A stretch of 64,000 nucleotides of DNA from IMG/VR virus record IMGVR_UViG_3300022885_000010; one strand, written 5' to 3'. This document shows, piece by piece, positions 2,662-59,967 of the stretch (the first letter of the stretch is position 1; each line of letters opens with the position of its first letter). The translations under genes and the position numbers were made by a program. This DNA is from a virus. The notes under the pieces were generated by a model. The model made no database searches, had not been told where the DNA came from, and worked only from the letters and a program-made list of their open reading frames with translations.

Positions 2662-4160
2662 TAGGTATAAATTTATTTGATAATGCATTTAAACATCTTG
2701 CAATTGATAGTGGTATATACTCAATTACTGATAATAGAACTCCCAAGTTTATAAAGTATAATAGGGGTAATTATGAATGGGATTCAATTACTATATTTAC
2801 AGATTCATATATACTATCTGATGTAGTTGATAAAGTTGATAGTAAATATAAGGTTGCTTGGATTATAGAGAACAGAGAGACTAATGGTAATAGGGTATTT
2901 GATAATATAGAATCGATTATAGATAAATTTGATTTTATAATTACATATGATGATGAATTACTAAATCAATACCCAGATAATACTGAATTTTATCCGTTTG
3001 GTGGGTGTTGGGTATTAGATGATAATTATGGTATATATGATAAGAGTAAATTAGTTTCTATGATATACTCACATAAAACAATGACAACTGGTCATAAATT
3101 AAGACATCAAATAGCTAATCACATAACTGACATGGTTGATTGTTACGGATCTGGGTGTGGTGTGGATTTTGAATATAAAGAAGAGATTTTAGCACCTTAT
3201 AAATTTTCTATAGTCATTGAAAATACGAAAAGTGATTATTATTTCACAGAGAAATTACTGGATTGTATGGCTGTTGGGACTATTCCTATATATTGGGGTG
3301 CAAATAAAATAGATAAGTTCTTTAATGTTGATGGTATATTAACATTTAATATTATTGATGAATTAGATGATATATTATCAATGTTAAGTGATGATTTGTA
3401 TAATGATATGTTACCACATGCAATTGATAATTTAGAAAGCGTTAAATTGTATGATACACAGGAAGATTGGATATTTGAGAATGTATTTTTAAAGCGAGGG
3501 ATGATTGATAATAATATCAATATTGATATTAACACCAACGACATCAGGACTTATGTTGATGGCAATCTGCAATCAGAATGGTTAAAATTATTTTTCGAGT
3601 CTGGTGGTGATAATATGTTATATGATATAGATAATATAACTGATAAATCTATAATTTTTGATGTTGGTTCTTATGATGGGGAATATTCATATGAAATGAA
3701 TAAGATATATAATTGTAAAACTTATGGTTTCGAGCCAGTTAGCGATTTATATTCAAAGTCAAATGCTAAATCCAATGAAAATATCAAATTCTTTAATTTT
3801 GCATTAGGATCTACAACTAAAAATATAGATATGGTGGTGTCAGATAACAAATCATCTGTGTTTTTGGGAACAGGTGAATTAGAAACTGTATCTCAAATGA
3901 ATATTATAGATGTTATTGATGATTTACACCTTAACCATATAGACTTAATAAAATTAAATATTGAAGGTGGTGAATATGATATTTTGAATAGTTTAATATC
4001 AAATGATAAATTGTCAATGTTTGGTAATGTATTGATACAATTCCATTATTACGGTGATAATCCTGTATATAAACGACATAAGATAATATCAGAATTATCT
4101 AAAACTCACGATGTTGTATTTTCATATCCATTTGTATGGGAATTATGGAGGCTTAAATGA
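2658..4160 (+). CDS. GT10 (alpha-1,3-fucosyltransferase-like) domain fused to FkbM-family methyltransferase
   Basis: YKFSIVIEN..YFTEKLLDC..GTIPIYWGA; C-terminal FDVGSYDG, FEPV, DLIKLNIEGGEY. Confidence 0.8.
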   Translation: MIGINLFDNAFKHLAIDSGIYSITDNRTPKFIKYNRGNYEWDSITIFTDSYILSDVVDKVDSKYKVAWIIENRETNGNRVFDNIESIIDKFDFIITYDDELLNQYPDNTEFYPFGGCWVLDDNYGIYDKSKLVSMIYSHKTMTTGHKLRHQIANHITDMVDCYGSGCGVDFEYKEEILAPYKFSIVIENTKSDYYFTEKLLDCMAVGTIPIYWGANKIDKFFNVDGILTFNIIDELDDILSMLSDDLYNDMLPHAIDNLESVKLYDTQEDWIFENVFLKRGMIDNNINIDINTNDIRTYVDGNLQSEWLKLFFESGGDNMLYDIDNITDKSIIFDVGSYDGEYSYEMNKIYNCKTYGFEPVSDLYSKSNAKSNENIKFFNFALGSTTKNIDMVVSDNKSSVFLGTGELETVSQMNIIDVIDDLHLNHIDLIKLNIEGGEYDILNSLISNDKLSMFGNVLIQFHYYGDNPVYKRHKIISELSKTHDVVFSYPFVWELWRLK

Positions 4161-13141: not shown

Positions 13142-14038
13142 ATGAGTGTAGATATTAAATATGGTAGAAAGAAATCAGGTATCAGAAAGGAACTAAATAA
13201 AAAAGTATCTAATTGGATAGATAGTATAGATGATGAGAATATACAAAAATTATGTAGAAAAAATACAATCGTAACTGGTGGCTCTATAGCATCTATGTTA
13301 TTAGGTGATCCAGTAAATGATTATGATATATATTTTAAAACTAAAGATTGCAATATACAAGTAGCTAAATATTACATTAATAAATTAAATAGTATTAGAG
13401 TATCTAATAAATTAGATGAAGTTCCTATGAATGTAATTGAAAAGTCTATTTGTAATATTAAAGGTGTAGATGAAGATAGAGTTTATATTGAAGCAAGAGG
13501 TGGTAAGGGTATCGTAACAAATGAAACAGATTCTGATGATTTCGGTGATTTTGTTACAGATGAAAATGGTAAATATGCACCTGTGTTCATATCAAGTAAT
13601 GCTATAACATTAACAGATAAGATTCAATTAGTAACTAGATTTTATGGTGATCCACAAACTATCCATAGTAATTATGATTTTGTTCATGCTATGAATTATT
13701 ATGATTATGATAATGATACGTTGGTATTGCACCCAGAAGCATTAGAATGCTTGTTATCGAGGACTTTAGTATATAAAGGTAGTTTATATCCAATAGCATC
13801 TATATTTAGAACTAAGAAGTTCTTAGAACGTGGTTGGAGAATATCTGCTGGAGAACAATTAAAAATAATGTGGCAAATATCTGAAATAGATATGTCTGAT
13901 ATTAATGTCTTAACTGAACAATTAACTGGTGTTGATCAAGCATATATGTATGCGTTAGTAGATATATTACAAGATTCTAAGAAAGAAGATATTAATTCTA
14001 CTTATGTAGCTAAAATTATAGATAAGTTATTTGACTAA
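13142..14038 (+). CDS. Putative Pol-beta-fold nucleotidyltransferase-like phage protein
   Basis: VTGGSIASMLLG..NDYDIYF resembles GG..DxD NTase signature. Confidence 0.55.
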   Translation: MSVDIKYGRKKSGIRKELNKKVSNWIDSIDDENIQKLCRKNTIVTGGSIASMLLGDPVNDYDIYFKTKDCNIQVAKYYINKLNSIRVSNKLDEVPMNVIEKSICNIKGVDEDRVYIEARGGKGIVTNETDSDDFGDFVTDENGKYAPVFISSNAITLTDKIQLVTRFYGDPQTIHSNYDFVHAMNYYDYDNDTLVLHPEALECLLSRTLVYKGSLYPIASIFRTKKFLERGWRISAGEQLKIMWQISEIDMSDINVLTEQLTGVDQAYMYALVDILQDSKKEDINSTYVAKIIDKLFD

Positions 14039-14079: not shown

Positions 14080-14113
14080 TATTAAGAATTGACACAAAAT
14101 AAAAATTAAACTG

Positions 14114-14185
14114 TTTGCTATGATATTTCATACTTCTAAACTACTATACCATGAATATAACAAGAAACGAAATATCAATTACAAA
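14114..14185 (+). ncRNA. Y-RNA-like stem-loop unit 1
   Basis: TTTG/CAAA stem, CTA/ATTA internal loop, TGATATTTC/GAAATATCA stem, ATACTTCT loop motif. Confidence 0.75.
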
Positions 14186-14194
14186 TAATACTAT

Positions 14195-14262
14195 GGGTTG
14201 CTATATAGAAACATACTTCTAAAATATACAAAACGCAAACTACGTTTTTATAATTACAACCC
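14195..14262 (+). ncRNA. Y-RNA-like stem-loop unit 2
   Basis: GGGTTG/CAACCC, CTA/ATTA, TATAGAAAC/GTTTTTATA, ATACTTCT. Confidence 0.75.
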
Positions 14263-14283: not shown

Positions 14284-14345
14284 GTCTGCTATGAAATTTC
14301 ATACTTCTATAATTTTGGATATTAATCGAAATTTCAATTACAGAC
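14284..14345 (+). ncRNA. Y-RNA-like stem-loop unit 3
   Basis: GTCTG/CAGAC, CTA/ATTA, TGAAATTTC/GAAATTTCA, ATACTTCT. Confidence 0.75.
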
Positions 14346-14357
14346 ATTTTTTACTTA

Positions 14358-14490
14358 AATTGCTATATGAAATCATACTTCTAACATTAAGGAACTTCAG
14401 GTCGTAGGTTCGAGTCCTACCTAATCGTAATAATCGGTTAGTAGCTCAGTTGGTAGAGCAGAAGTATAAAACGATTTCATAATCACAATT
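14358..14490 (+). ncRNA. YrlA-like RNA: unit 4 with circularly permuted tRNA module
   Basis: AATTG/CAATT, CTA/ATCA, TATGAAATC/GATTTCATA; inside: T-arm GTAGG-TTCGAGT-CCTAC, then CTAATCG/CGGTTAG acceptor stem closed by a loop, then D-arm GCTC-AGTTGGTA-GAGC. Confidence 0.82.
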
Positions 14491-14518
14491 TAATATTTAA
14501 TAATAAGGAAATCTTTAA

Positions 14519-16624
14519 ATGAATAAAGACCTATTAAAAATAGCATTAAAATATAGATCATCTATATTCATAATGGACTCATCTTCTACAGTATTAGAAG
14601 ATATTGATATTAATAATTACAAACAATCAATAAAAGAGACTATAGCATATAACCAAATATTGAATAATTTGGGTTATACGATAGATTCTCATTTACTTAA
14701 ACTTGTATTACGATATAACTTAAATTTAATTGATATAATTTTTATATTGGAAGAATTTAAAGGTGCACGTTCATATAAAACATTTTATCCAAACTTCCCA
14801 GAAGAAGTTTATAATATGTCTGAATTTGAGCTATACTTTAACGCTATAATACATTATTTGTCATTAGGCGAATACTATCCAGATATAGATAAAAAGCCAA
14901 GACAAACTGATATTGACGTATTAAACTTCAAACGTATAGGTATAATAGATATTAATGGTATGATAGAAATATTATGTGATTTATTATCTACTAATGATTC
15001 TCTATCTGATTTCGATAAGGAATCAGTTAAGGTATTAATAGCTCACTTTGGAGAGATATATGATATTAATACTATAAATATTCCATATAAAGAAAACTTA
15101 TGTTATGTAGTTGAATATACTGATAATTTAGAATTACTCAAAACACCAACTGATATACTACGTTACTGTACATATCTATCTGGTGGTGATGTATCATTAA
15201 CTGAAAATACCAAGTTTAAATCATTATCTAAAAGTCTTAGACGTAGAATAACTAATAGACTTGATAAAGTGTTTAACGTAGATGACTTCAAGAGACATAA
15301 AAATAAATGGATTAAATTAACACATTCATTACATTGTGGTGAATTTCTAAAACAATCCAAATTTTCAGATGTATTGAGATCATTTAGAAATAATAAAAAT
15401 GTAGAGAGTTTAAGCACTATTATAAATGAATCTTTAAAAAATAAAGACTATCATTCAGCTATTAATTCTCTAATGAAGAAACCAGGTGAATACGTAAGAA
15501 ACATAGTAACTTTAATTAATATCTCTGATGGATATAACTCTGGTAAATTAGGTATTGATAATTTAGAAGAATGTATATCAGAAGTATCAACACGAGTATT
15601 ATTACAAGCTAAAGGACACTTACAAGTTATATTAAAAGGTTATGATAGTAGATTAGTATTTCCTAAAGGTTCTACATCTAAAGTTAGAAGAGTGCAATTT
15701 AAGAAATTTACAGATTGGCAATTGCAATTAGTACAAGACTATCTAAATTGTATAAACTCACATTTAAGATTGAGATTACAAGGAACGTCAGAAGGTAAGA
15801 AAGTATATATAGATGAAAGATTAAGTCAATATACATTACCTACACAACAAAGAAGTGTATCGGAAGGTCAATTCTCTTATGGTAGAGGATCTAAGATTGA
15901 TTTAGAAGATAAAAATAAAAATATAACTTTACGAATGTTTTGTCATTGGATAGGACAAGATATTGATTTGTCAGCTACATTATATAATGATAAATTTGAA
16001 ATGGTAACTCATTGTTCATTTCAACAATTAAAAATTAAAGAATTAGAAATAGTACATTCTGGTGATATTACACGAGCACCAAATGGAGCATCTGAATTTA
16101 TTGATATAACTATGAATAAAGTAGTAAAATCAGAAGTTAGATATATAACATTAAATATAAATGTTTATAGTGGCCCAACATTTAAAGAACATAAAGAATG
16201 TTTCGCAGGTTTTATGCTAAGAGAACGTCCTAATTCAAATGAGATTTATGATCCTAAAACAGTTAAGTATTCTATGAAATTAGATGGAAATTCTAAGGTA
16301 GCAGTTCCATTTATCTTTGATATTGAAACTAAACAGATAATCTGGACTGATTTATATTTTAGAAATGGTGGTATGCATCATAACACAGTTATCAATAATG
16401 ATGTGAATGTATCTGATGTGTTAAGGTCTATAGTTAATCTAACTGATAAAACTACATTAAAAGACTTATTTAGTATGTACTATGCACCATCACAATTAAC
16501 ATTTGACATTGATAACGCTGATATGCTATATGTTACGGATGAGTATGAGGATGATACGTTAGATAATAAAAATGTTGTTAGAGCAAGTGATGTTCTAACT
16601 ATAAATTCAAAATATATAAAATAA
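14519..16624 (+). CDS. Probable Rot/TROVE-like helical domain fused to C-terminal TerD-like domain
   Basis: FYPNFPEEVYNMSEFELYFNAIIHY; C-terminal DIDLSA..HSGDITRAPNGASEFIDI (TerD-like); Rot assignment inferred from family recall and adjacent Y-like RNAs. Confidence 0.7.
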   Translation: MNKDLLKIALKYRSSIFIMDSSSTVLEDIDINNYKQSIKETIAYNQILNNLGYTIDSHLLKLVLRYNLNLIDIIFILEEFKGARSYKTFYPNFPEEVYNMSEFELYFNAIIHYLSLGEYYPDIDKKPRQTDIDVLNFKRIGIIDINGMIEILCDLLSTNDSLSDFDKESVKVLIAHFGEIYDINTINIPYKENLCYVVEYTDNLELLKTPTDILRYCTYLSGGDVSLTENTKFKSLSKSLRRRITNRLDKVFNVDDFKRHKNKWIKLTHSLHCGEFLKQSKFSDVLRSFRNNKNVESLSTIINESLKNKDYHSAINSLMKKPGEYVRNIVTLINISDGYNSGKLGIDNLEECISEVSTRVLLQAKGHLQVILKGYDSRLVFPKGSTSKVRRVQFKKFTDWQLQLVQDYLNCINSHLRLRLQGTSEGKKVYIDERLSQYTLPTQQRSVSEGQFSYGRGSKIDLEDKNKNITLRMFCHWIGQDIDLSATLYNDKFEMVTHCSFQQLKIKELEIVHSGDITRAPNGASEFIDITMNKVVKSEVRYITLNINVYSGPTFKEHKECFAGFMLRERPNSNEIYDPKTVKYSMKLDGNSKVAVPFIFDIETKQIIWTDLYFRNGGMHHNTVINNDVNVSDVLRSIVNLTDKTTLKDLFSMYYAPSQLTFDIDNADMLYVTDEYEDDTLDNKNVVRASDVLTINSKYIK

Positions 16625-17366: not shown

Positions 17367-17846
17367 ATGTATTTCAAGACATTCCAAACAAACGAAATAA
17401 TTGATGATTGGATTTTACATGTTCAGAAATTCATTGAAATGAATCCTGATGCTAAAATAGCAGTTGGATCGGATTCAAAATATAAGAAGGCATCTAAAAA
17501 AGTTATTTATGTTACCGTGATAGCTATGTTTTATTATGGAACTGATGGATACAATAAAGGTGCTCATTTAATATATTCTATGGATAAACATAAAAAAGAA
17601 TTATCTATATTTGAAATGCTTTGGACTGAAGTAGAGAAATCTAAATGTATAGCCGAAGAAATACAAGATATTTTACAAGAACCTGTAGAAATCCATATCG
17701 ATTTAAATTCAGAAGCTAAATATAAATCTAATATAGCATATCCTGCGGCTGTAGGTTGGCTTAAAAGTTTAGGGTTTGATGTATTTGCAAAACCAAATGC
17801 ACCTGCTGCAACGTGTGCAGCTGATTTAATAGCTAATAGAAAATAA
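17367..17846 (+). CDS. RNase H-like YkuK-family protein
   Basis: AVGSDS, LWTEVEKS, VEIHIDLN, KPNAPAATCAAD. Confidence 0.8.
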   Translation: MYFKTFQTNEIIDDWILHVQKFIEMNPDAKIAVGSDSKYKKASKKVIYVTVIAMFYYGTDGYNKGAHLIYSMDKHKKELSIFEMLWTEVEKSKCIAEEIQDILQEPVEIHIDLNSEAKYKSNIAYPAAVGWLKSLGFDVFAKPNAPAATCAADLIANRK

Positions 17847-17880
17847 AATTTGTTTATATCATTATTTTTTCGTAAGTTTG
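17840..17880 (+). promoter_or_regulatory. Bacteroidota-type promoter copy 5
   Basis: AAAATAAAA-TTTG-N20-TAAGTTTG. Confidence 0.85.
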
Positions 17881-17916
17881 TATTATTATTTTAAACGATA
17901 TTAAAAAAATAACATT

Positions 17917-18387
17917 ATGAATGAGAATTATGAATTTTTCTGGTCAGGGCCATTTAGTCAATGGCATCCTTGTAAATTTGAAATAGATGGTGATATGTAT
18001 AATTGTACAGAACAGTATATGATGCAACAAAAGGCTTTATTCTTTGGTGATGAATTAACTGCTTCAAAGATTATGAATACTTTACATCCAAAACAACAGA
18101 AGAAACTAGGTAGAGAAGTTTCAAATTTCATTGCTGAAAAATGGTCAGTTGTATGTGAAGAAATTGTATATAAAGGAAACCATGCAAAGTTCACACAAAA
18201 CGAAAAATTATTAAATAAATTACTTGATACTAAAGATAAAACTTTAGTTGATGCTTCTCCATGTGATAAGATTTGGGGTATTGGTTTACTTGAAGATGAT
18301 CCAAGAGCACAAGACCCTGAACAGTGGTTAGGTTTAAATTTGTTAGGAAAGGTCTTAACTAAATTAAGAGATGACTTAGTTAAATAG
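17917..18387 (+). CDS. NADAR (YbiA-family) protein
   Basis: FSQWHP, EQYMMQQKA, KKLGR, AKFTQN, DKIWGIG, NLLGKVL. Confidence 0.92.
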   Translation: MNENYEFFWSGPFSQWHPCKFEIDGDMYNCTEQYMMQQKALFFGDELTASKIMNTLHPKQQKKLGREVSNFIAEKWSVVCEEIVYKGNHAKFTQNEKLLNKLLDTKDKTLVDASPCDKIWGIGLLEDDPRAQDPEQWLGLNLLGKVLTKLRDDLVK

Positions 18388-30894: not shown

Positions 30895-31003
30895 GGGTAG
30901 ATGGCGAAATTGGTAAACGCTTATGTCAGGTCGTAAAATCGACACACTCTATGAGTTCCGTAAATGCAGACGTGCAATGTAGGTTCGAATCCTACTCTAC
31001 CCA
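30895..31003 (+). ncRNA. Solitary oversized tRNA-like RNA (109 nt)
   Basis: GGGTAGA/TCTACCC acceptor, TGGCGAAATTGGTAAACGC D-arm, GTAGG-TTCGAAT-CCTAC T-arm, expanded anticodon arm. Confidence 0.72.
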
Positions 31004-33395: not shown

Positions 33396-33898
33396 TACTT
33401 AAAAAATTATATATTGATACTGTAATTCATAATCCTATAGTGCTATTTGATTCTAATAACAATCTAATTTATTGTGAAGATAGTGATGGAGATTGGGTAA
33501 AAAAAGAATTTGATTCTAATAATAATAAAATTTATTGTGAAGATAGTAATGGATTTTGGGTAAAAAGCGAATTTGATTCTAATGATAATTGTATTTATTG
33601 GGAAAATAATAATGGAGATTTGGTAAAAAGCAAATATGATTCTAATAATAATAGAATTTATTGGGAAAATTATGATGGATTTTGGTCAAAAAGAGAATTT
33701 GATTCTAATAATAATCTAATTTATCGTGAATATCATGATGGATTTTGGGTAAAAAACGAATTTGATTCTAATAACAATAGAATTTATTATGAAGATAGTA
33801 ATGGATTTTGGGTAAAAAGCGAATTTGATTCTAATAATAATGAAATTTATTATGAAGATAGTAATGGTATGATAACGGATAACAGACCTAAGAAATGA
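33392..33898 (+). CDS. 21-aa repeat family protein
   Basis: MILKKLYIDTVIHNP cap, GMITDNRPKK. Confidence 0.85.
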   Translation: MILKKLYIDTVIHNPIVLFDSNNNLIYCEDSDGDWVKKEFDSNNNKIYCEDSNGFWVKSEFDSNDNCIYWENNNGDLVKSKYDSNNNRIYWENYDGFWSKREFDSNNNLIYREYHDGFWVKNEFDSNNNRIYYEDSNGFWVKSEFDSNNNEIYYEDSNGMITDNRPKK

Positions 33899-34275
33899 TA
33901 CTTAAAAAATTATATATTGATACTGTAATTCATAATCCTATAGTGCTATATGATTCTAATAATAATCGAATTTATCGTGAATATAATGATGGGCACTGGC
34001 TAAAACAAGAATATGATTCTAATAATAATGAAATTTATTGGGAAGATAGTAATGGATATTGGGTAAAAAGAGAGTTTGATTCTAATAATAATGAAATTTA
34101 TTGGGAAAATAGTAATGGAGATTTGGTAAAAAGTGAATTTGATTCTAATAACAATAGAATTTATTATGAAGATAGTGATGGATTTTGGGTAAAAAACGAA
34201 TTTGATTCTAATAACAATAGAATTTATTGGGAAAATAGTAATGGAATTATATTTGATAACAGACCTAAAAAATAA
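33895..34275 (+). CDS. 21-aa repeat family protein
   Basis: Same cap, stop inside promoter. Confidence 0.85.
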   Translation: MILKKLYIDTVIHNPIVLYDSNNNRIYREYNDGHWLKQEYDSNNNEIYWEDSNGYWVKREFDSNNNEIYWENSNGDLVKSEFDSNNNRIYYEDSDGFWVKNEFDSNNNRIYWENSNGIIFDNRPKK

Positions 34276-47330: not shown

Positions 47331-48419
47331 ATGAAATTTGACAAAAAAGAAATACGTCGGTTAGTAGATGAAAAGTATATTACCGAGAACAGACACCCAA
47401 ACTACAATATTTATGTATATAAATATACATCTAAGACTGTATATGAACGTTATTGGAACGATTATACATTAAACCTACGTGGAACTGTATTAGACAGATT
47501 CTCTAATTTAATATCTATACCATTCTCTAAATTCTTTAATTATAGCGAATACCCATCTCTTGAATTTTCTGATGACACTACCTATATCTATGAGAAGATG
47601 GATGGTGCATTACTAAACTTATTTAATTATGAGGGTAAATGGAATTTTGCAACTCAACAAAGGTTCGTTTCTGAACATACAGAACGAGCAATGAAAATAT
47701 TTGAAGGTAAGTATATAAAGCTAATGCCTATATTAGATCCAACAAAAACATATATGTTTGAGTTAATATCTGATGTATCACATGTAATTGTTAATTATGA
47801 AGAAGAAGATTTACATTTATTAGGTGTTAGGAATAACGTTACTTGTGAATATGATAATTTTGAATATTTCAATTTAAGAAATATGTTCTCATCTGCCAAA
47901 ATATTATTTAAAACTAAAAAACCAGAAGAAGTAAATAATTTTATAGCTAATATAGACACCATATTAGATGAAAATTCTGAAGGTGTTGTTATATACCAAC
48001 CTACTAATGACATACGTGTAAAGGTTAAAACTCAACGTTATATAGAACTGCATAAATTACTATATGTTAATAATGAACGTGCTATGTTTAATTCGTTAAT
48101 ACAAAATAAGAATATAGTCGATGAAACTATATTAAAAGATATACCTGATGAATGGTATAACAATATTAAGACTATGCAAAATAGAATTAAATCTGAAATG
48201 GATAGAATTATAAGTGAAGTGTCAATCTATGTTACTGATAATAGAGATGTAATCCGTTATATGTTAGAGAAGAATAAAGAAAATAGAAAGTTAATGGCTA
48301 TATCAATCAAAGATTATAAATATAAGCATGTGGTATTCTCTCTATTAGACGATAAGAAAGATGATGAATTGTTATTTGATATTATCAAATCTGAAAAGAA
48401 GTGTTTTAATGAAAATTAA
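47331..48419 (+). CDS. T4 Rnl1-type RNA ligase
   Basis: YKYT, RG.V.D, PFSKFFNY.E, EKMDG (motif I), FELI, EGVV, RVKVK. Confidence 0.9.
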   Translation: MKFDKKEIRRLVDEKYITENRHPNYNIYVYKYTSKTVYERYWNDYTLNLRGTVLDRFSNLISIPFSKFFNYSEYPSLEFSDDTTYIYEKMDGALLNLFNYEGKWNFATQQRFVSEHTERAMKIFEGKYIKLMPILDPTKTYMFELISDVSHVIVNYEEEDLHLLGVRNNVTCEYDNFEYFNLRNMFSSAKILFKTKKPEEVNNFIANIDTILDENSEGVVIYQPTNDIRVKVKTQRYIELHKLLYVNNERAMFNSLIQNKNIVDETILKDIPDEWYNNIKTMQNRIKSEMDRIISEVSIYVTDNRDVIRYMLEKNKENRKLMAISIKDYKYKHVVFSLLDDKKDDELLFDIIKSEKKCFNEN

Positions 48420-51242: not shown

Positions 51243-51691
51243 TACTTAAAAAATTATATATTGATACTGTAATTCATAATCCTATAGTGCTATATGATTC
51301 TAATAATAATGAAATTTATTATGAAGATAGTAATGGATATTGGGTAAAAAGAGAATTTGATTCTAATAATAATGAAATTTATTATGAAGATAGTAATGGA
51401 TTTTGGGTAAAAAGCGAATATGATTCTAATAATAATCGAATTTATCGTGAAAATAATAATGGATTTTGGGTAAAAAGCGAATTTGATTCTAATAATAATG
51501 AAATTTATTGGGAATATAATGATGGATTTTGGGTAAAAAGAGAATTTGATTCTAATAATAATCTAATTAATCATGAATATAGTAATGGAATTATACGAGG
51601 TAAAAGACCTAAAGAAACAAAAAGATTAACTCATAAAGAAATATGTGAATTAATTGGATATAATGTAGAAATAATCAAAGAGAAGGAATAA
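51239..51691 (+). CDS. 21-aa repeat family protein with LTHKEICELIG tail
   Basis: MILKKLYIDTVIHNP cap; tail as in 21244. Confidence 0.85.
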   Translation: MILKKLYIDTVIHNPIVLYDSNNNEIYYEDSNGYWVKREFDSNNNEIYYEDSNGFWVKSEYDSNNNRIYRENNNGFWVKSEFDSNNNEIYWEYNDGFWVKREFDSNNNLINHEYSNGIIRGKRPKETKRLTHKEICELIGYNVEIIKEKE

Positions 51692-52345: not shown

Positions 52346-53602
52346 ATGTCAGTTAGATTCGATCTAATAAACAAAATAGACTCTATCCAATCAGAGCTAC
52401 AAAGAAAATATGCAGGTGTTATCTTGTCACAAGGAGCAACCTTATATATTAAAGGTGCGGCTGGAACAGGTAAATCAGCTGTATTACGTGAACTTGCTAA
52501 AAGTTTAGATATGCAAGTTATTGTACTTGTAATCTCACAAGTAGATGAGGCTGATTTAGGTATCTATCCAGAAACTTATGATTATATACCTGATGATGAA
52601 CCTAATGCTAAACCAGTTAGATGTTTTAGATATTTACCTGCTGAATGGGCTATCAAGGCAAGTCAACAACCAACGTTAGTTATATTTGAGGAATTGAATA
52701 GATCAACTATAGAAAAGAGAAATGCTTGTTTACAGATTTTAACTGAATGGAGAGTAGGTCAATATCTAATGAACAAAGAGAATGTATTTTTTGCCGCATC
52801 CGGTAATATAGGTAATGAAGATGGTAATGACGTAGATGAATTTGATAATGCTATGATTAATAGATTGTGTATTATGAATCAAATATCAAACTATCAACTA
52901 TGGAAATCAGAGTTTGGTGATGCAAACGTATCAAGTGTATTAATGGATTATTTAGATTCGACTGGTGGTAGTGTTATACACGATCAAGCACATGTTAAGA
53001 ATAATACAGCTAATCGTACTCCATACGCTACAGAACGTAGTTGGAGTAATCTATCAGAGTATATAGTTAGTATTCATCATACAGACCCAACAGATCCTAA
53101 ATCACCTATTAAGGATAAAGGTAAATTAATCTATGAATTAGATAATAATGGTATTGCACATGGATATATTGGTAATAATGCTATTAAATTCATTTCATAC
53201 TTGAAAAATTCAAATGATGTATCAGTAGATAATATATTAAATGATTTTGATTTAGTTAGAAAATCAATTAGAAAATTAGAACAATCTGACGCAACATCAA
53301 TTATATATGACTTAGGTAAGTTAGATATTGGTGCATTAAAAGAATCTCAAATTATGAATATATTTGCTTTCTTAGATTTAATGCCATCTAAGGATTTACG
53401 TGCTACTTACATTAAAGATGTATTTATGAAATGTATTGATGAACATGGAATGAAATTAACATTTATAAATGATAGACCTTCATATTTCAAGCCACAATTC
53501 ATTAGTAATTTCAAATTGTTTAGAGATAACAATATGGAGTTATTCAAAGAGACTATCAAAGGTTGTAATAATGATGAACTTGGCTTAACAAATACAAAAT
53601 AA
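52346..53602 (+). CDS. MoxR-like AAA+ ATPase
   Basis: GAAGTGKS (Walker A), IFEELNR (Walker B), AASGN, AMINR, TERSW. Confidence 0.85.
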   Translation: MSVRFDLINKIDSIQSELQRKYAGVILSQGATLYIKGAAGTGKSAVLRELAKSLDMQVIVLVISQVDEADLGIYPETYDYIPDDEPNAKPVRCFRYLPAEWAIKASQQPTLVIFEELNRSTIEKRNACLQILTEWRVGQYLMNKENVFFAASGNIGNEDGNDVDEFDNAMINRLCIMNQISNYQLWKSEFGDANVSSVLMDYLDSTGGSVIHDQAHVKNNTANRTPYATERSWSNLSEYIVSIHHTDPTDPKSPIKDKGKLIYELDNNGIAHGYIGNNAIKFISYLKNSNDVSVDNILNDFDLVRKSIRKLEQSDATSIIYDLGKLDIGALKESQIMNIFAFLDLMPSKDLRATYIKDVFMKCIDEHGMKLTFINDRPSYFKPQFISNFKLFRDNNMELFKETIKGCNNDELGLTNTK

Positions 53603-53617
53603 AGGAAAATAAATAAT

Positions 53618-55153
53618 ATGTATTTCGATTCAATAAAAAATATAAGAATACAAAATATATTAACTGAATTTATATTAAATTATAAATTAAATGCAAGGTT
53701 CTACGGATACTTTTGTCAATATATAAACTTTAGAGAAAACACACATACAAAGACATATCATCCATACGTGGATAAGCATGGTATGGTTGTATCATACAAC
53801 TCTGAATTTATAGATAGTTTATCAGAAGAAGAATTAAGATATTTAATATGTTTTGTATGTTTTCAATTTATATCTAATCACTCATTAGTAGAAGTAACAA
53901 ACGAAGCTACGTTTATAGATTTCTTATCATCTACGATAGTATTAACTAATATACTTAGTATGGCATCAGATCAAACTAACTTTAAACGTTTTGGGTTTCT
54001 ACCTCCATTTCCAAATAAAGAACTTGATGATTATACTGTATTCTATAAGAACACTAAACATCTAACTGAAATTAATGAGGGTGTTAAAGACTATATCAAT
54101 ACTAATTACAAAGGTAGAATGGATTATAGTGATTTAACAGATAAACTTATAGAGTTAAGAAATATAGACCCTACATTAATACAAAAGTTAATGGAAGCTA
54201 CTAAAGATATGACAGAGGAAAATAAAAATGACTATTCCGACATATTAGAGGAACATACAGAAGCTATACAAGCTATATCTGATACTAAAGATACTATCGA
54301 AGAGATAATAACTTCAATCAAAGAGTTCTTTGATTGGGTTGATACTGATAAATTCTTTAATAATAGTGATGATATTAAGAAGTATAATGAATCAAATAAA
54401 GAAGTAGAAGAATTTAAACCTGTTAGTGAAAATAACAAATCTAATAAATCAAGTGAATATACTTCGTTATTGAGAGTTCTTGCAAAAAAAGAACTTAACT
54501 TTGAAAGTATAGGTAGTGGTTGTTCAGGTAACAATTGTGAGAATAGAGGTTCAATTGAAAACGCATTATCATCAGCAAGAAATAGAGGGTCTGGTGCTGG
54601 TGCATTAGATAGACACTTAGATTCTTTAACTGAATCAAGAGTTGATTATATGAAATTAATTAAATCTAAAACTAATAGTTTAATGTCTAATTATACTAAT
54701 AGAAAATACACTAAACCTAATAGAAAAGGTCTTAAAGGTATCAAAGGTAAACATAAGACTGGTAATGCTATAACTTGTATATTAGATACATCGGGTTCTA
54801 TGTGGGGTTCATTAGAAGTTGTATTATCAACGATATTTAAACATGGTCTTCACGTTAATTTAATACAAATTGATACTAACGTTAAAGATCCAATTATATT
54901 AAAGAGTAAAGCTGACTTTTCTAAGATAGACTTGTTGGGTGGTGGTGGAACTGAATTGCAACCTGCTATTGACTATGTAGTTGAGAATGATAAATATAAT
55001 AAACATAATGTAGTTATTCTAACGGATGGTTATACTGATACATTAGATACTTCTAACTTAAAGCAAGTGTTGATATTGTCTGTTGGTGTGGAATGTGATT
55101 TAATAACATATAACAATGTAACTCAAATTATATTAAATCCAGAGGAATTATAA
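53618..55153 (+). CDS. DUF2201-like protein with C-terminal vWA domain
   Basis: ILDTSGSM (MIDAS), GGGTELQP, ILTDG; adjacent to MoxR ATPase. Confidence 0.85.
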   Translation: MYFDSIKNIRIQNILTEFILNYKLNARFYGYFCQYINFRENTHTKTYHPYVDKHGMVVSYNSEFIDSLSEEELRYLICFVCFQFISNHSLVEVTNEATFIDFLSSTIVLTNILSMASDQTNFKRFGFLPPFPNKELDDYTVFYKNTKHLTEINEGVKDYINTNYKGRMDYSDLTDKLIELRNIDPTLIQKLMEATKDMTEENKNDYSDILEEHTEAIQAISDTKDTIEEIITSIKEFFDWVDTDKFFNNSDDIKKYNESNKEVEEFKPVSENNKSNKSSEYTSLLRVLAKKELNFESIGSGCSGNNCENRGSIENALSSARNRGSGAGALDRHLDSLTESRVDYMKLIKSKTNSLMSNYTNRKYTKPNRKGLKGIKGKHKTGNAITCILDTSGSMWGSLEVVLSTIFKHGLHVNLIQIDTNVKDPIILKSKADFSKIDLLGGGGTELQPAIDYVVENDKYNKHNVVILTDGYTDTLDTSNLKQVLILSVGVECDLITYNNVTQIILNPEEL

Positions 55154-57659: not shown

Positions 57660-58520
57660 ATGAAAATTAAAATATTACAAGGTGTCCCAGCATCAGGCAA
57701 GACAACCTACGCATTGGATTACTGCAATAAAAATACAGATTGGTTTCGAGTATCACGTGATGATATTAGAAATATGAGAGGTAAGTATTGGCTTCCTAAA
57801 GATGAGCAAATCATAACAGACATTGAAAAATCATGTATTAAATTTGCATTAGAACACAATAAAAACGTTATAGTTGATGCTATGAACCTAAATCCAAATC
57901 ATCTTAGAACATTAAAAGATTATATCAAATCTATAGATCCAAATACACAAATCACAATTAAGAAGTTTCATGTGGATATTGTAGTTGCTATTGATAGAGA
58001 TTCTAAACGTAGTAATCCAGTAGGAGAAAAGGTTATTAGAGAAATATATAATAAGTATTTCAAAATAGAACCTAAAGTCTTAAAACAAGATATATCATTA
58101 CCATCAGCTATTATATGTGATATTGATGGTACTATTGCTGATAGAGTAGATAGAAGTCCATTTGAATGGGATAGAGTAGATGAGGATATTGCTATACAAC
58201 CAATTATAGATATAATTTGTAAGTATAATGAATTAGGAACTGAAATTATATTTTTGTCTGGTAGAGATGGCGTGTGTTATGATAAAACTTTAAAGTGGAT
58301 AAATAATAACGTTGGATTTACAACGTTAGATACTAAGTTGTATATGAGAGATGAGGGTGATATGCGTAAAGATAATATAATCAAAACAGAATTATTCGAT
58401 AAGCATATCAGAGATAAATACAATGTATTGTTTGTATTGGATGATAGAGATCAAGTTGTTAAGATGTGGAGAGAAGAGATGGGTCTAACTTGTTTACAAG
58501 TAAATTATGGAGACTTCTGA
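57660..58520 (+). CDS. pseT: Polynucleotide 5'-kinase/3'-phosphatase (T4 PNKP-like)
   Basis: GVPASGKTT, SRDDIR; HAD ICDIDGT, LSGRD, DDRDQVV.MWR. Confidence 0.93.
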   Translation: MKIKILQGVPASGKTTYALDYCNKNTDWFRVSRDDIRNMRGKYWLPKDEQIITDIEKSCIKFALEHNKNVIVDAMNLNPNHLRTLKDYIKSIDPNTQITIKKFHVDIVVAIDRDSKRSNPVGEKVIREIYNKYFKIEPKVLKQDISLPSAIICDIDGTIADRVDRSPFEWDRVDEDIAIQPIIDIICKYNELGTEIIFLSGRDGVCYDKTLKWINNNVGFTTLDTKLYMRDEGDMRKDNIIKTELFDKHIRDKYNVLFVLDDRDQVVKMWREEMGLTCLQVNYGDF

Positions 58521-59352: not shown

Positions 59353-59579
59353 TACTTAAAAAATTATATATTGATACTGTAATTCATAATCCTATAGTGC
59401 TATTTGATTCTAATAATAATGAAATTTATTGGGAATATAGTAATGGACTTTGGGTAAAAATAGAATATGATTCTAATAATAATGAAATTTATTGTGAATA
59501 TAATGATGGATTTTGGGTAAAAAGAGAATATGATTCTAATAATAATCAAATTTATCGTGAAGATAGTAATGGTAAATAA
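59349..59579 (+). CDS. 21-aa repeat family protein, C-cap frameshifted
   Basis: DNRPKI cap present in shifted frame just after the stop. Confidence 0.75.
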   Translation: MILKKLYIDTVIHNPIVLFDSNNNEIYWEYSNGLWVKIEYDSNNNEIYCEYNDGFWVKREYDSNNNQIYREDSNGK

Positions 59580-59598: not shown

Positions 59599-59967
59599 AT
59601 GATACTTAAAAAATTATATATTGATGAAATCCATAATCCTATAGTGCTATTTGATTCTAATAATAATGAAATTTATTGGGAATATAATGATGGATTTTGG
59701 GTAAAAAGAGAATTTGATTCTAATAATAATCGAATTTATCGTGAAGATAGTAATGGATTTTGGGTAAAAAGCGAATTTGATTCTAATAATAATGAAATTT
59801 ATTGGGAATATAATGATGGATTTTGGGTAAAAAGAGAATATGATTCTAATAATAATGAAATTTATTATGAACATAGTGATGGAATTATACGAGGTAAAAG
59901 ACCTAACAAAAATAAAATTTGGAAGTTAATAAATAATTTCGTAAGTTTGTATTATAATTTTAAATAA
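59599..59967 (+). CDS. 21-aa repeat family protein reading through the promoter
   Basis: Ends RPNKNKIWKLINNFVSLYYNFK. Confidence 0.85.
   Translation: MILKKLYIDEIHNPIVLFDSNNNEIYWEYNDGFWVKREFDSNNNRIYREDSNGFWVKSEFDSNNNEIYWEYNDGFWVKREYDSNNNEIYYEHSDGIIRGKRPNKNKIWKLINNFVSLYYNFK
59909..59949 (+). promoter_or_regulatory. Bacteroidota-type promoter copy 18
   Basis: AAAATAAAA-TTTG-N20-TAAGTTTG. Confidence 0.85.

Follow-up and report, generated by a model that had tools for sequence, protein, structure and literature searches.

The + strand of the window, by which we mean the whole 64,000-nucleotide stretch of viral DNA analysed here, contains an array of four tandem Y-RNA-like hairpins with a common handle (UUGCUAU, a 9-bp stem, AUACUUCUA and a 3' AAUUACA). 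It is 27 nt from the end of the array to the ATG, at 14519, of a gene for a 701-aa protein. The features of the locus are:

14112..14187, + strand: unit 1, with handle UUGCUAU, stem GAUAUUUC/GAAAUAUC, loop motif AUACUUCUA and 3' handle AAUUACAA; no tRNA-like cargo
14195..14262, + strand: unit 2, same scaffold, stem AUAGAAAC/GUUUUUAU with one G-U pair
14284..14345, + strand: unit 3, same scaffold, stem GAAAUUUC/GAAAUUUC; outermost handle pair changed from U-A to C-G
14356..14492, + strand: unit 4, same scaffold, with a permuted tRNA-like module as apical cargo
14360-66, + strand: 5' handle UUGCUAU of unit 4
14367-74, + strand: stem AUGAAAUC of unit 4, whose partner is GAUUUCAU at 14473-80
14375..14382, + strand: handle loop motif AUACUUCU, invariant in 4/4 units (family consensus UUCCUUCU) and 5' partner of an alternative 8-bp pairing
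14481-88, + strand: 3' handle AAUCACAA of unit 4
14505-10: ribosome-binding site AAGGAA, directly after unit 4
14519..16624, + strand: 701-aa protein, with predicted alpha-helical repeats (residues ~1-450), a TerD beta-sandwich (~460-635) and a small C-terminal domain

A conserved scaffold in four tandem units

Covariance model R1 recognises unit 1 with 49.8 bits (E=1.9e-12), unit 2 with 58.3 bits (E=1.2e-14) and unit 3 with 55.1 bits (E=8e-14). Outer and inner stems are both present in the predicted fold of unit 1 (z=-2.8), unit 3 folds with z=-4.4, and the G-U pair of unit 2 becomes a C-A mismatch if read from the opposite strand. Unit 4 reaches only 9.9 bits (E=0.043) in an alignment limited to 14356-14418, since an 80-nt insert deprives it of a whole-length score; all motifs are nevertheless in place, and the fold of 14355-14500 amounts to -36.4 kcal/mol (z=-5.05). 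Each unit holds exactly one copy of CATACTTCT, at 14129, 14212, 14300 and 14374, in agreement with the invariant motif that the preliminary description had reported in all four units.

The family consensus of these RNAs is GGCYAY-N9-UCCUUCUA...AUUUCC. All four window units have UGCUAU for GGCYAY on the 5' side, then the 9-bp stem of free sequence and the (U/A)(C/A)CUUCUA motif. The 3' handle, A-AUU(U/A)CC in the family, is AAU(U/C)ACA here, and it forms a C.A/U.U internal loop and a one-nucleotide bulge opposite the 5' handle. Among 26 short units the scaffold is paired in 90.3% of cells vs 61.6% in shuffles and 40-52% in sliding controls, with compensatory changes at 13/17 pairs. The outer stem (columns 3-5 with 80-82) shows 12-18 double-sided changes, and pair 6/79, which in 22 units is GC, reads UA in 3, these being window units. 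U-G pairs are found on the + strand only, for example seven at columns 11/73.

The same letters can be read at the DNA level, with no RNA gene at all: four tandem sigma-70-type promoters (TTGCTA-N16-TAnnnT) or DNA repeats, plus a decayed tRNA remnant from recombination between tandem tRNA genes. The units do offer TTGCTA, a 16-nt spacer and TAAACT, TAAAAT, TATAAT or TAACAT, one of them passes a promoter scan with 9/12 matches, and tRNA clusters lie 2.4 kb downstream. However, promoter-like sites occur in this AT-rich window at chance level (34 found vs 34.6 expected), the homologues have GGCYAY and no -35 box, and the free-sequence stem downstream of the putative -35 box maintains its pairing, through compensatory changes, with a partner 40-110 nt off, which a promoter does not need. 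These three observations speak against tandem promoters, a reading that we rejected. The G-U pairs, moreover, fit a + strand RNA only, and no tertiary-contact nucleotide is missing from the supposed remnant, whose covariation extends over phages and bacteria. We give the DNA-level account as a whole only the slightest chance.

The sequence is contained in 15 sequencing runs, all of salt-lake metagenome DNA in the form of contigs, with no RNA run among them. Comparison of four runs that cover it in part revealed no variants within the array. Apart from this, the comparison brought up only unrelated tRNAs with the same D and T arms and Asn/Lys-type anticodon loops.

A permuted tRNA body without anticodon loop in unit 4

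By direct reading, positions 14394-14465 of the + strand are a circularly permuted tRNA body without anticodon loop, in the order anticodon-stem 3' strand, variable loop, T arm, 7-bp acceptor hairpin, D arm and anticodon-stem 5' strand. The preliminary description had given the coordinates and element order correctly throughout, and it was also right that the anticodon is missing and the acceptor end sealed, as the acceptor is closed as a hairpin. The elements are:

14394-98, + strand: anticodon-stem 3' strand ACUUC (DNA ACTTC), tRNA positions 39-43
14399-403, + strand: variable loop AGGUC (AGGTC), tRNA positions 44-48; C48 pairs with G15
14404-20, + strand: T arm GUAGG, loop UUCGAGU, CCUAC (GTAGG-TTCGAGT-CCTAC)
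14421-27, + strand: acceptor 3' strand CUAAUCG (CTAATCG)
14428-34, + strand: acceptor sealing loop UAAUAAU (TAATAAT)
14435-41, + strand: acceptor 5' strand CGGUUAG (CGGTTAG)
14442-43, + strand: U8 A9 (TA)
14444-59, + strand: D arm GCUC, loop AGUUGGUA, GAGC (DNA GCTC-AGTTGGTA-GAGC)
14460, + strand: A26
14461-65, + strand: GAAGU (GAAGT), anticodon-stem 5' strand, tRNA positions 27-31
14460-67, + strand: 8-mer AGAAGTAT (RNA AGAAGUAU), which as a whole pairs alternatively with 14375-82

The classical tertiary-contact nucleotides can be read directly and are complete: U8, A14, G15:C48, G18 G19, A21, G46, G53, U54 U55 C56, A58 and C61. When the module is folded in isolation, the permuted cloverleaf is the minimum free energy structure, with an ensemble frequency of 0.69 and z=-3.1. 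The acceptor hairpin (14421-41, + strand) contains G3-U70 among its 7 bp; alanine identity was considered on this account and discarded, as the pair is not conserved in homologues and we treat it as chance.

The module is not a canonical tRNA, as it departs from the canonical order, 7-nt anticodon loop and free acceptor end. ARAGORN called no tRNA at the module, as expected of a permuted body without anticodon loop, and the Rfam tRNA model matches the T arm only, with 14.5 bits. Permuted tRNA genes of the Cyanidioschyzon merolae type and two-piece tmRNA (permuted ssrA) also place the 3' half before the 5' half. They have this order in common with the window module, but they give rise to a tRNA that decodes or to a tRNA-like domain that can be aminoacylated at its free acceptor end. 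In the window module a hairpin closes the acceptor, and de-permutation does not restore the intact anticodon arm that a permuted tRNA gene needs: the anticodon stem runs into linkers of 11 nt and 7 nt and the handle stem, with no 7-nt loop.

A closer likeness is found in Rfam YrlA (RF02553), which aligns 14396-14463 to model positions 23-85, the tRNA-like domain (37.9 bits, E=1.2e-6). The YrlA gathering score of 69 bits is not reached, and the Rsr-binding stem of the model (positions 1-22 and 86-114) remains unaligned. The 5' Rsr-recognition motif of YrlA is GNCGAAN0-1G (Chen et al. 2014, PMC4201824); it is missing here, with no CGAA in 14356-14493 on direct reading. In YrlA RNAs of bacteria and mycobacteriophages, the tRNA-like domain is permuted in the same way (T arm, hairpin-closed acceptor, D arm), is joined to a long stem via the anticodon-stem position and has the same conserved tertiary nucleotides. 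As in the window family, there are several RNAs per locus and only some carry the tRNA-like domain (YrlA vs YrlB), the RNA gene adjoins that of a large helical protein, and a link to RNA-repair genes is common to both. They differ in the handle, which has the Rsr motif in YrlA and GGCUAU...UCCUUCUA.../AUUUCC in the window family, and in the protein, which is Rsr/Ro60 for YrlA, whereas in the window neighbour neither a TROVE nor a vWA domain is recognised by sequence, and a TerD domain is present.

Further evidence for the module comes from its homologues. In 11 of them the permuted cloverleaf is paired in 95.6% of cells vs 69% in shuffles, with double-sided changes in 16/21 pairs; the acceptor stem is paired in 98.6% of cells and shows compensatory changes at 7/7 pairs. 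Nearly all homologues have an acceptor of exactly 7 bp and a T stem of exactly 5 bp. When the set is extended to 21 homologous units from phages and bacteria, every helix of the module is kept via compensatory changes, with pairing of 100% in the T-arm helix, 98.8% in the D arm and 83.8% in the anticodon-like helix, where 4/5 pairs change on both sides. The last of these, ACUUC at 14394-98 with 14461-65, is thus conserved by covariation, and its variants include ACUUC/GAAGU, ACCGG/CCGGU, GCCGC/GCGGC, CUGAU/AUCAG and GCGGAU/AUCCGC. The architecture of unit 4 is identical to that of the tRNA-carrying units at six other loci (L003, L005, L007, L011, L018 and L026). Two close copies of the locus (L031, L032) have an array 100% identical to that of the window and hence carry no covariation information.

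The flagged piece is therefore a genuine tRNA look-alike, beyond chance, with its halves swapped and its anticodon missing. The YrlA-type permuted tRNA mimic that the preliminary description had placed in unit 4 is borne out by the Rfam match, the fold and the covariation.

Two pairings, one conserved fold

The preliminary description had also noticed that the strand after the D arm has two mutually exclusive partners, and both pairings do exist in the sequence: ACUUC/GAAGU, of 5 bp, and AUACUUCU/AGAAGUAU, of 8 bp. It had read them as a conformational switch or docking code. Unit 4 would then be bistable, AGAAGUAU toggling between ACUUC (tRNA-like fold) and AUACUUCU, as a switch in cis or by docking to units 1-3 in trans; in a softer version, a protein on the handle motif would free AGAAGU, so that the tRNA fold would form only within the RNP, in this phage lineage. 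Energies speak for the longer pairing. The nearest-neighbour model favours it by ~4 kcal/mol (ensemble -37.5 vs -33.5 kcal/mol for the tRNA type), the 8-bp helix stacks on the handle stem (predicted minimum -35.7 kcal/mol), a random 10-mer would seldom match the motif over 8 bp (P ~0.0008), and a weaker 5-bp version is found at L005. However, this model takes no account of tRNA tertiary contacts, and as AGAAG is already fixed by the tRNA-type stem, the chance of extending it to 8 bp is ~6.5%.

The homologues point to the shorter pairing. In the 21 tRNA-like units, changes in the strand after the D arm are matched by changes in the proximal strand and not in the handle motif, which stays constant (UCCUUCU) while the anticodon stem varies; covariation of ATACTTCT with AGAAGTAT, on which the preliminary description had made its idea depend, is absent. 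Pairing between motif and strand has a median of 3 bp and is limited to 4 bp or fewer in 19/21 units; it reaches 6 bp or more (8 bp) in the window only, so a switch or docking code is no feature of the family. L005 has AGAAGUAU together with the motif UCCUUCU, so it was not the motif that gave AGAAGUAU its sequence. The UACUUCU variant of the motif also occurs in L014 units without tRNA cargo, and the handle motif is single-stranded in all short units, as in the consensus structure of the 26. Finally, AGAAGTAT has about ten copies on the + strand of the window and would therefore be a poor address for docking in trans.

Judging by covariation, the conformer maintained in evolution is the tRNA-type fold, with ACUUC/GAAGU closing the four-way junction, and the coexistence of two pairings is by the same comparison a lineage-specific coincidence and not a conserved mechanism. 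A two-state switch would be confined to a single phage, and the RNA probably works in some other way; we consider a bistable unit 4, in either version, quite unlikely.

The comparison also bears on another suggestion of the preliminary description, a decoy for tRNA-targeting defence nucleases. In the infected cell, such a mimic would sequester anticodon nucleases of the host or other toxins directed at tRNA. The neighbourhood resembles a counter-defence island, with a Gad2-family ORF (precomputed Pfam), NADAR and RNase H-like genes and tRNA clusters, and the phage has an Rnl1 and polynucleotide kinase pair for healing and sealing. Yet the family retains the tRNA elbow and the acceptor/T helix, in permuted and unpermuted versions, and never the anticodon loop. 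In one relative (L009) the module is joined via the acceptor stem, and there the anticodon arm is capped by UUCG. Since the anticodon loop is the substrate of PrrC/RloC/colicin/VapC-type nucleases, these would find nothing to cut, and acceptor-end toxins would lack a substrate unless the closing loop were cut first. Free-living bacteria, too, have these RNAs next to RNA-repair genes, a poor fit to a phage-specific decoy. A decoy function, weakened in this way, appears highly improbable.

A proposed RNP with a TerD-domain protein

The RNA family lies on the same strand as, and adjoins, homologues of the 701-aa helical and TerD-domain protein. We collected 26 distinct IMG/VR loci encoding a homologue of this protein (30-41% identity), and all 26 contain R1 matches, 70 in total and all on the gene strand; in bacteria, 27 of the 30 loci examined have 49 matches. 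In five whole phage genomes (236-379 kb), 12/16 R1 matches lie <3 kb from the gene and the rest within 22 kb. An exact-pattern scan of IMG/VR for GGCTAT-N9-TACTTCTA returned many loci, some with arrays (L208, L228, L252), and GGCUAU-handle arrays reach 4-8 tandem units. Filtering these loci for permuted tRNAs gave no convincing tRNA-like unit beside a UACUUCU-type handle. The corresponding scan for TGCTAT-N8-CATACTTCT gave single matches only, in line with a rough chance estimate. We found no published description of a GGCUAU-handle RNA family with a helical/TerD protein.

Gene adjacency makes the 701-aa protein the likely partner of the array RNAs, and it is from this adjacency that we infer binding. 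An AlphaFold2 model (pLDDT 84) shows a TerD fold (2qz7, Z=12.6; 3ibz, E=5e-6). Its helical domain aligns over 253-269 residues with three Ro60 structures in VIA alignments (Z 6.4-8.3), best with Ro60 of Thermus phage phiLo (Z=8.3); other structural matches cover at most ~100 residues, except two alignments of 141-153 residues with an rmsd of ~12 A. The first AFDB matches of the protein were the ZorC EH domain and DUF4132. Pointers to Ro60 come from the VIA alignments only. Foldseek against PDB and Swiss-Prot models returned no Ro60, the 701-aa protein has no Pfam match, and 38 family members gave no TROVE match and one weak TerD match only. A profile of the 38 found nothing among PDB sequences, and hhalign to the DUF2828 N-domain profile gave 0.5% probability. 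In the modelled structure, the resemblance of the helical repeat domain to Ro60 is thus weak. A PF05731 (TROVE) gene is present in none of five related phage genomes, while control genomes do match; PF11443 matched none of the five, but the controls were unmatched too.

Klebsiella phages phi1_175008 and KP2025 (Stephanstirmvirinae) offer a comparison. They encode YrlA-like RNAs beside DUF2828/vWA_Ro60-like proteins, likewise as tandem small RNAs next to a protein gene, within a tRNA cluster. Their module is ~80% identical to that of the window over 81 nt, including the flanks GAACUUUUGGUC...GAGCAGAAGUA. Their handle, however, is of the CAGCAA type, the RNAs give full-length sub-threshold YrlA matches (34-40 bits), R1 finds no match there, and their protein belongs to PF11443/PF25043, unlike the 701-aa protein. 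The Klebsiella-phage DUF2828 protein found nothing among all window ORFs with phmmer, nor did BLASTP align it to the 701-aa ORF. As module is shared and handle and protein are not, the same cargo is carried on two unrelated scaffolds.

In Deinococcus radiodurans Yrn1 and metazoan Y RNAs, which partner Ro60, the 5' and 3' ends likewise form a conserved bulged helix, their protein-binding site, and the effector loops vary; their binding helix has no sequence similarity to the window handle. The tRNA-like features of Yrn1 stand in the opposite orientation, as in L009, and the tethering of PNPase is a role of the known Yrn1/Ro60 system.

From sequence and comparison, we think it rather probable that 14356-14492 is a + strand gene for a small non-coding RNA, in which a YrlA-type tRNA mimic sits on a Y-RNA-like scaffold with a TerD-protein partner. 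The best reading is that the scaffold is new and canonical Ro60 absent, in an arrangement that resembles bacterial Y RNAs beside Ro60. Unit 4, the fourth member of the array, is probably co-transcribed with the downstream 701-aa gene. Each unit consists of an outer stem, a GGCUAU/AUUUCC internal loop (here UUGCUAU/AAUUACA), the 9-bp free stem, a single-stranded (U/A)(C/A)CUUCUA and a variable apical cargo. The cargo of unit 4 is a tRNA body joined to the handle via its anticodon stem, the acceptor being closed by a 7-nt loop, and this attachment accounts for the permuted gene order. We propose that the handle is bound by the adjacent helical and TerD-domain protein, as a functional analogue, possibly a very remote relative, of Ro60. 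[quoted passage not shown] YrlA RNAs, which Rsr binds in vivo, are modified by TruB and DusA (PMC4201824), the enzymes behind their Psi55 and D.

RNase P deserves separate mention. YrlA of Mycobacterium smegmatis, which has a 7-bp acceptor stem and, unlike the window, canonical Rsr as partner, is cut by RNase P at tRNA +1 in vitro and receives CCA in vivo (PMC4201824); as the acceptor here is exactly 7 bp, the sealing loop may be opened in the same way, at 14434/14435. The module could even be mainly a processing signal, where RNase P (with 3' trimming and CCA addition) cuts at 14434/14435 or tRNA-processing enzymes release the array RNAs. RNase P depends mainly on the 12-bp acceptor/T helix, which nearly all homologues build from 7 + 5 bp, and the array abuts the ribosome-binding site of the 701-aa gene, which argues for co-transcription and a need for processing. 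Against this, the module is present in one of four units only and so cannot release units 1-3, many related arrays have no tRNA-like unit within 3-kb flanks, and Salmonella YrlA and Deinococcus Yrn1 are not cleaved. Processing as the main role is unlikely in our judgement; as an additional role it is compatible with the RNP that we favour.

Such a particle could have a part in the surveillance or repair of tRNAs, alongside the Rnl1-type ligase of the phage and its polynucleotide kinase. The Rnl1-like ligase (47331-48419) and the kinase (57660-58520) are both encoded within the window, but their genes are 33-43 kb away from the array. In Aliikangiella, RNAs and gene are flanked by a nucleotidyltransferase on one side and by an RNase T-like exonuclease, an RNA ligase and an HD and kinase protein on the other, and in Zooshikella an RNA ligase is directly upstream. 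It is tempting to propose, tentatively and at slightly under even chances, that these loci encode an undescribed RNP family without recognisable Ro60, composed of a ~700-residue helical and TerD protein and tandem GGCUAU-handle RNAs. Found in large phages and diverse bacteria, it would be wired to ligase/kinase repair genes, its cargo recruiting tRNA-recognising enzymes or damaged tRNAs.

Until now, Ro60/Rsr has been the known partner of Y RNAs that carry a tRNA-like domain. In the present family this cargo is found on another scaffold, one with strong covariation, and in many large phages and bacteria that scaffold is accompanied by another protein architecture (helical repeats and TerD), often with RNA ligases and kinases next to it. 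The family would thus be an independent case, supplied by nature, in which to study how a tRNA-shaped module serves an RNA-surveillance particle: either end of the module can be the point of attachment, and the elbow and acceptor/T helix are kept but the anticodon never. Cultivable bacterial carriers are available in Aliikangiella, Zooshikella and Arenicella.

The permuted tRNA-like module of unit 4

The window is AT-rich (27% G+C) and belongs to an uncultured phage from salt-lake metagenomes; it contains two tRNA clusters, glycan-synthesis genes, and genes for an RNA ligase of Rnl1 type and a polynucleotide kinase. Four tandem units, predicted small hairpin RNAs with common scaffold ends (the handle), lie in the 480-nt gap between the end of the preceding ORF at 14038 and the start of a 701-codon ORF at 14519. 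CATACTTCT occurs once in each of the four units. Re-reading unit 4 gave the order below, and all coordinates of the preliminary description proved exact.

Elements of the unit 4 module (direct reading)
14394-98, +, anticodon-stem 3' strand ACTTC
14399-403, +, AGGTC
14404-20, +, T arm
14421-27, +, CTAATCG
14428-34, +, loop TAATAAT
14435-41, +, CGGTTAG
14444-59, +, D arm
14460-67, +, AGAAGTAT

The permuted tRNA recognized in that description is real. Rfam YrlA aligned to 14396-14463 (E=1.2e-6) through its tRNA-like domain only (model positions 23-85 of 114), scoring 37.9 bits, below the gathering score of 69. For the isolated module, folding predicts a permuted cloverleaf (ensemble frequency 0.69), and direct reading shows that the elbow and core nucleotides are kept (U8, A14, G15:C48, G18 G19, A21, G46, G53, U54 U55 C56, A58 and C61). 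Neither ARAGORN nor the Rfam tRNA model called the module, because the anticodon loop is absent and the order is permuted. Across 11 tRNA-like modules, 95.6% of positions are paired, with compensatory changes in 16 of 21 pairs, all 7 acceptor pairs among them. In the larger set of 21 modules, pairing reaches 100% in the T stem, 98.8% in the D stem and 83.8% in the anticodon-type helix (4/5 pairs compensatory). The sealed acceptor stem also holds the alanine identity pair G3-U70 (14425/14437), which is not conserved in homologous modules and is probably due to chance.

Two partners are available to the strand following the D arm (AGAAGUAU). Pairing with the proximal ACUUC would yield the tRNA-type fold. 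Pairing with the handle motif AUACUUCU, a single-stranded loop motif after a 9-bp stem, would span 8 bp and stack on the handle stem. It had been proposed that AGAAGUAU toggles between both partners as a conformational switch or docking code, and a nearest-neighbour model, which ignores tertiary contacts and protein binding, does favour the handle-motif pairing (ensemble free energy of -37.5 vs -33.5 kcal/mol). However, covariation among 21 tRNA-like units supports the proximal helix, which is formed in all of them by 4-6 bp of highly varied sequence, while the handle motif does not vary, and the longest helix that it could form with the 3' strand is 3 bp in the median. A motif helix of at least 6 bp was found in the window only, locus L005 having 5 bp. 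Moreover, AGAAGUAU also occurs in L005, where the motif is UCCUUCU, and the variant UACUUCU is found in L014 units lacking tRNA cargo; both points argue against motif and 8-mer having shaped each other. As AGAAG is already fixed by the tRNA stem, chance alone would add three more pairs in about 6.5% of trials. Docking in trans meets a further objection, since the window's + strand carries about 10 copies of AGAAGTAT, which is therefore a poor trans address. For these reasons we consider a switch or docking code improbable, though conceivable as a peculiarity of this phage.

A scaffold family linked to a TerD-family gene

DNA similarity among database phages was limited to Klebsiella phages, which carry an 80%-identical module immediately after a DUF2828/vWA_Ro60-like protein gene, with full-length, sub-threshold Rfam YrlA matches. 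In Klebsiella phage phi1_175008, two short hairpin units (3818-3871 and 3902-3956) precede the YrlA-like RNAs and match Dictyostelium Class I RNA weakly (24-25 bits, gathering score 41.5); their handle, with the common motif AAUACAGCAA, differs from that of the window.

The 701-aa ORF (14519..16624, +) has hundreds of homologues of 35-41% identity. We compared 28 IMG/VR loci (26 distinct) and 30 bacterial loci, all encoding one, using a simple structural filter for T arm, 7-bp acceptor hairpin and D arm. In many loci a permuted module lies on the same strand, immediately beside the gene. The family scaffold reads, on its 5' side, outer stem, GGCYAY, 9 nt of free sequence, UCCUUCUA and a variable apical part, and on its 3' side the complement of the 9 nt, A-AUU(U/A)CC and the outer stem. 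The window has a variant handle (UUGCUAU ... AUACUUCUA ... AAUUACA), in which the G-C to U-A change at pair 6/79 is compensatory.

In 26 short units, pairing across the 17 scaffold pairs amounts to 90.3%. Column shuffles gave 61.6% and sliding the partner by 1-3 columns gave 40-52%; 13 of the 17 pairs show double-sided changes. The frequent U-G pairs are compatible with the + strand only. R1, a covariance model built on the alignment of these units, gave 70 matches in the IMG/VR loci, all on the gene strand and covering 26/26 distinct phage loci, and 49 matches in 27 of the 30 bacterial loci (Planctomycetota, Verrucomicrobiota, Omnitrophota, and isolates of Arenicella, Aliikangiella, Zooshikella, Pleionea and Pseudoalteromonas). 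Searching five complete phage genomes of 236-379 kb yielded 16 matches: 12 are no more than 3 kb away from the gene, and the others no more than 22 kb. R1 scores units 1-3 of the window at 50-58 bits; unit 4 has every handle motif and is penalised by its 80-nt insert.

No Pfam domain was found in the 701-aa protein. The AlphaFold2 model (pLDDT 84) comprises a helical repeat domain, a TerD beta-sandwich (2qz7, Z=12.6; 3ibz, E=5e-6, in structure searches) and a small C-terminal domain. In searches with an exhaustive structural aligner, one of them using the whole protein, three Ro60 structures were the sole low-rmsd matches covering most of the helical domain.

Ro60 matches to the helical domain
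Thermus phage phiLo Ro60, Z=8.3, 253 residues aligned
Xenopus Ro, Z=6.5, 267 residues aligned
Deinococcus Rsr, Z=6.4, 269 residues aligned

These Z values (6.4-8.3) are middling for helical repeats, and Foldseek, Pfam and hhalign against DUF2828 returned no Ro60 likeness. On the modelled structure, the protein is possibly a remote Ro60 relative. Canonical TROVE genes were not found in the five related phage genomes, so the 701-aa protein is the only conserved neighbour of the RNAs.

Cargo types and RNA-repair context

The cargo varies across the family: a short loop alone, lone T-arm-like hairpins, permuted tRNA bodies or, in L009, an unpermuted body; thus, cargo can be attached through either end.

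Cargo other than short loops and permuted bodies
L005 2271; L007 395; L017 5559; L026 5354, lone T-arm-like hairpins
L009 2599-2732, +, unpermuted tRNA body joined by an acceptor stem open to the handle, anticodon arm replaced by a UUCG-capped hairpin

Since the family retains the elbow and the 7+5-bp acceptor/T helix and never an anticodon, recognition by enzymes reading tRNA shape is favoured; the lack of an anticodon argues against the suggested decoy for anticodon nucleases. [quoted passage not shown] As the stem in the window is likewise exactly 7 bp, we predict that RNase P would open the sealed acceptor loop at 14434/14435.

The window itself encodes a heal-and-seal RNA repair pair.

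Repair genes of the window
47331-48419, +, T4 RnlA-type RNA ligase (Rnl1; phrog_562, E=1e-51)
57660-58520, +, polynucleotide kinase (phrog_505, E=2e-87)

Immediately upstream of the array, the 298-aa ORF at 13142-14038 (+) is assigned to PF26128 (Gad2, Gabija anti-defence) in precomputed Pfam for identical copies; it had no match in our local Pfam copy, and PHROG 4400 lists its function as unknown. RNase H-like (PF04308) and NADAR (PF08719) genes lie between both tRNA clusters (17367-18387, +), and together with the Gad2-like ORF they look like a counter-defence or RNA-metabolism island. At 30895-31003 (+), a 109-nt Rfam tRNA match (45.5 bits, no ARAGORN call) may be an interrupted or enlarged tRNA. 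At 52346-55153 (+), a gene for a MoxR/AAA-type ATPase precedes one for DUF2201 (vWA-like with a putative metallopeptidase). Five near-identical copies of about 60-130 nt (AAAAAATTATATATTGATACTGTAATTCATAATCCTATAGTGCTAT...GATTCTAATAA) within ORFs (33401-33459, 33904-33962, 51248-51306, 59358-59416 and 59605-59663, +) represent a multi-copy paralogous gene family or repeat domain.

In Aliikangiella coralliicola (L164 980-7840), the order is HD protein, Pol-beta-type nucleotidyltransferase, GGCUAU-handle RNA array including a permuted tRNA unit (2786-2839), TerD-family gene, RNase T-like exonuclease, RNA ligase (PF09414) and HD + AAA_33 kinase. Zooshikella has an RNA ligase gene immediately upstream. 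The repair-gene context in both bacteria and in the window fits the RNA-repair gene-neighbourhood scheme reportedly drawn by Burroughs and Aravind in 2016, and also the rsr-yrlBA-rtcBA arrangement.

In summary, the tRNA-like module is of an already known type (YrlA). Rfam 15 and the publications found in our literature search contain neither the scaffold and its handle motifs nor the TerD-family partner, whose role we infer from gene adjacency. Aliikangiella coralliicola provides a cultivable host for this system.
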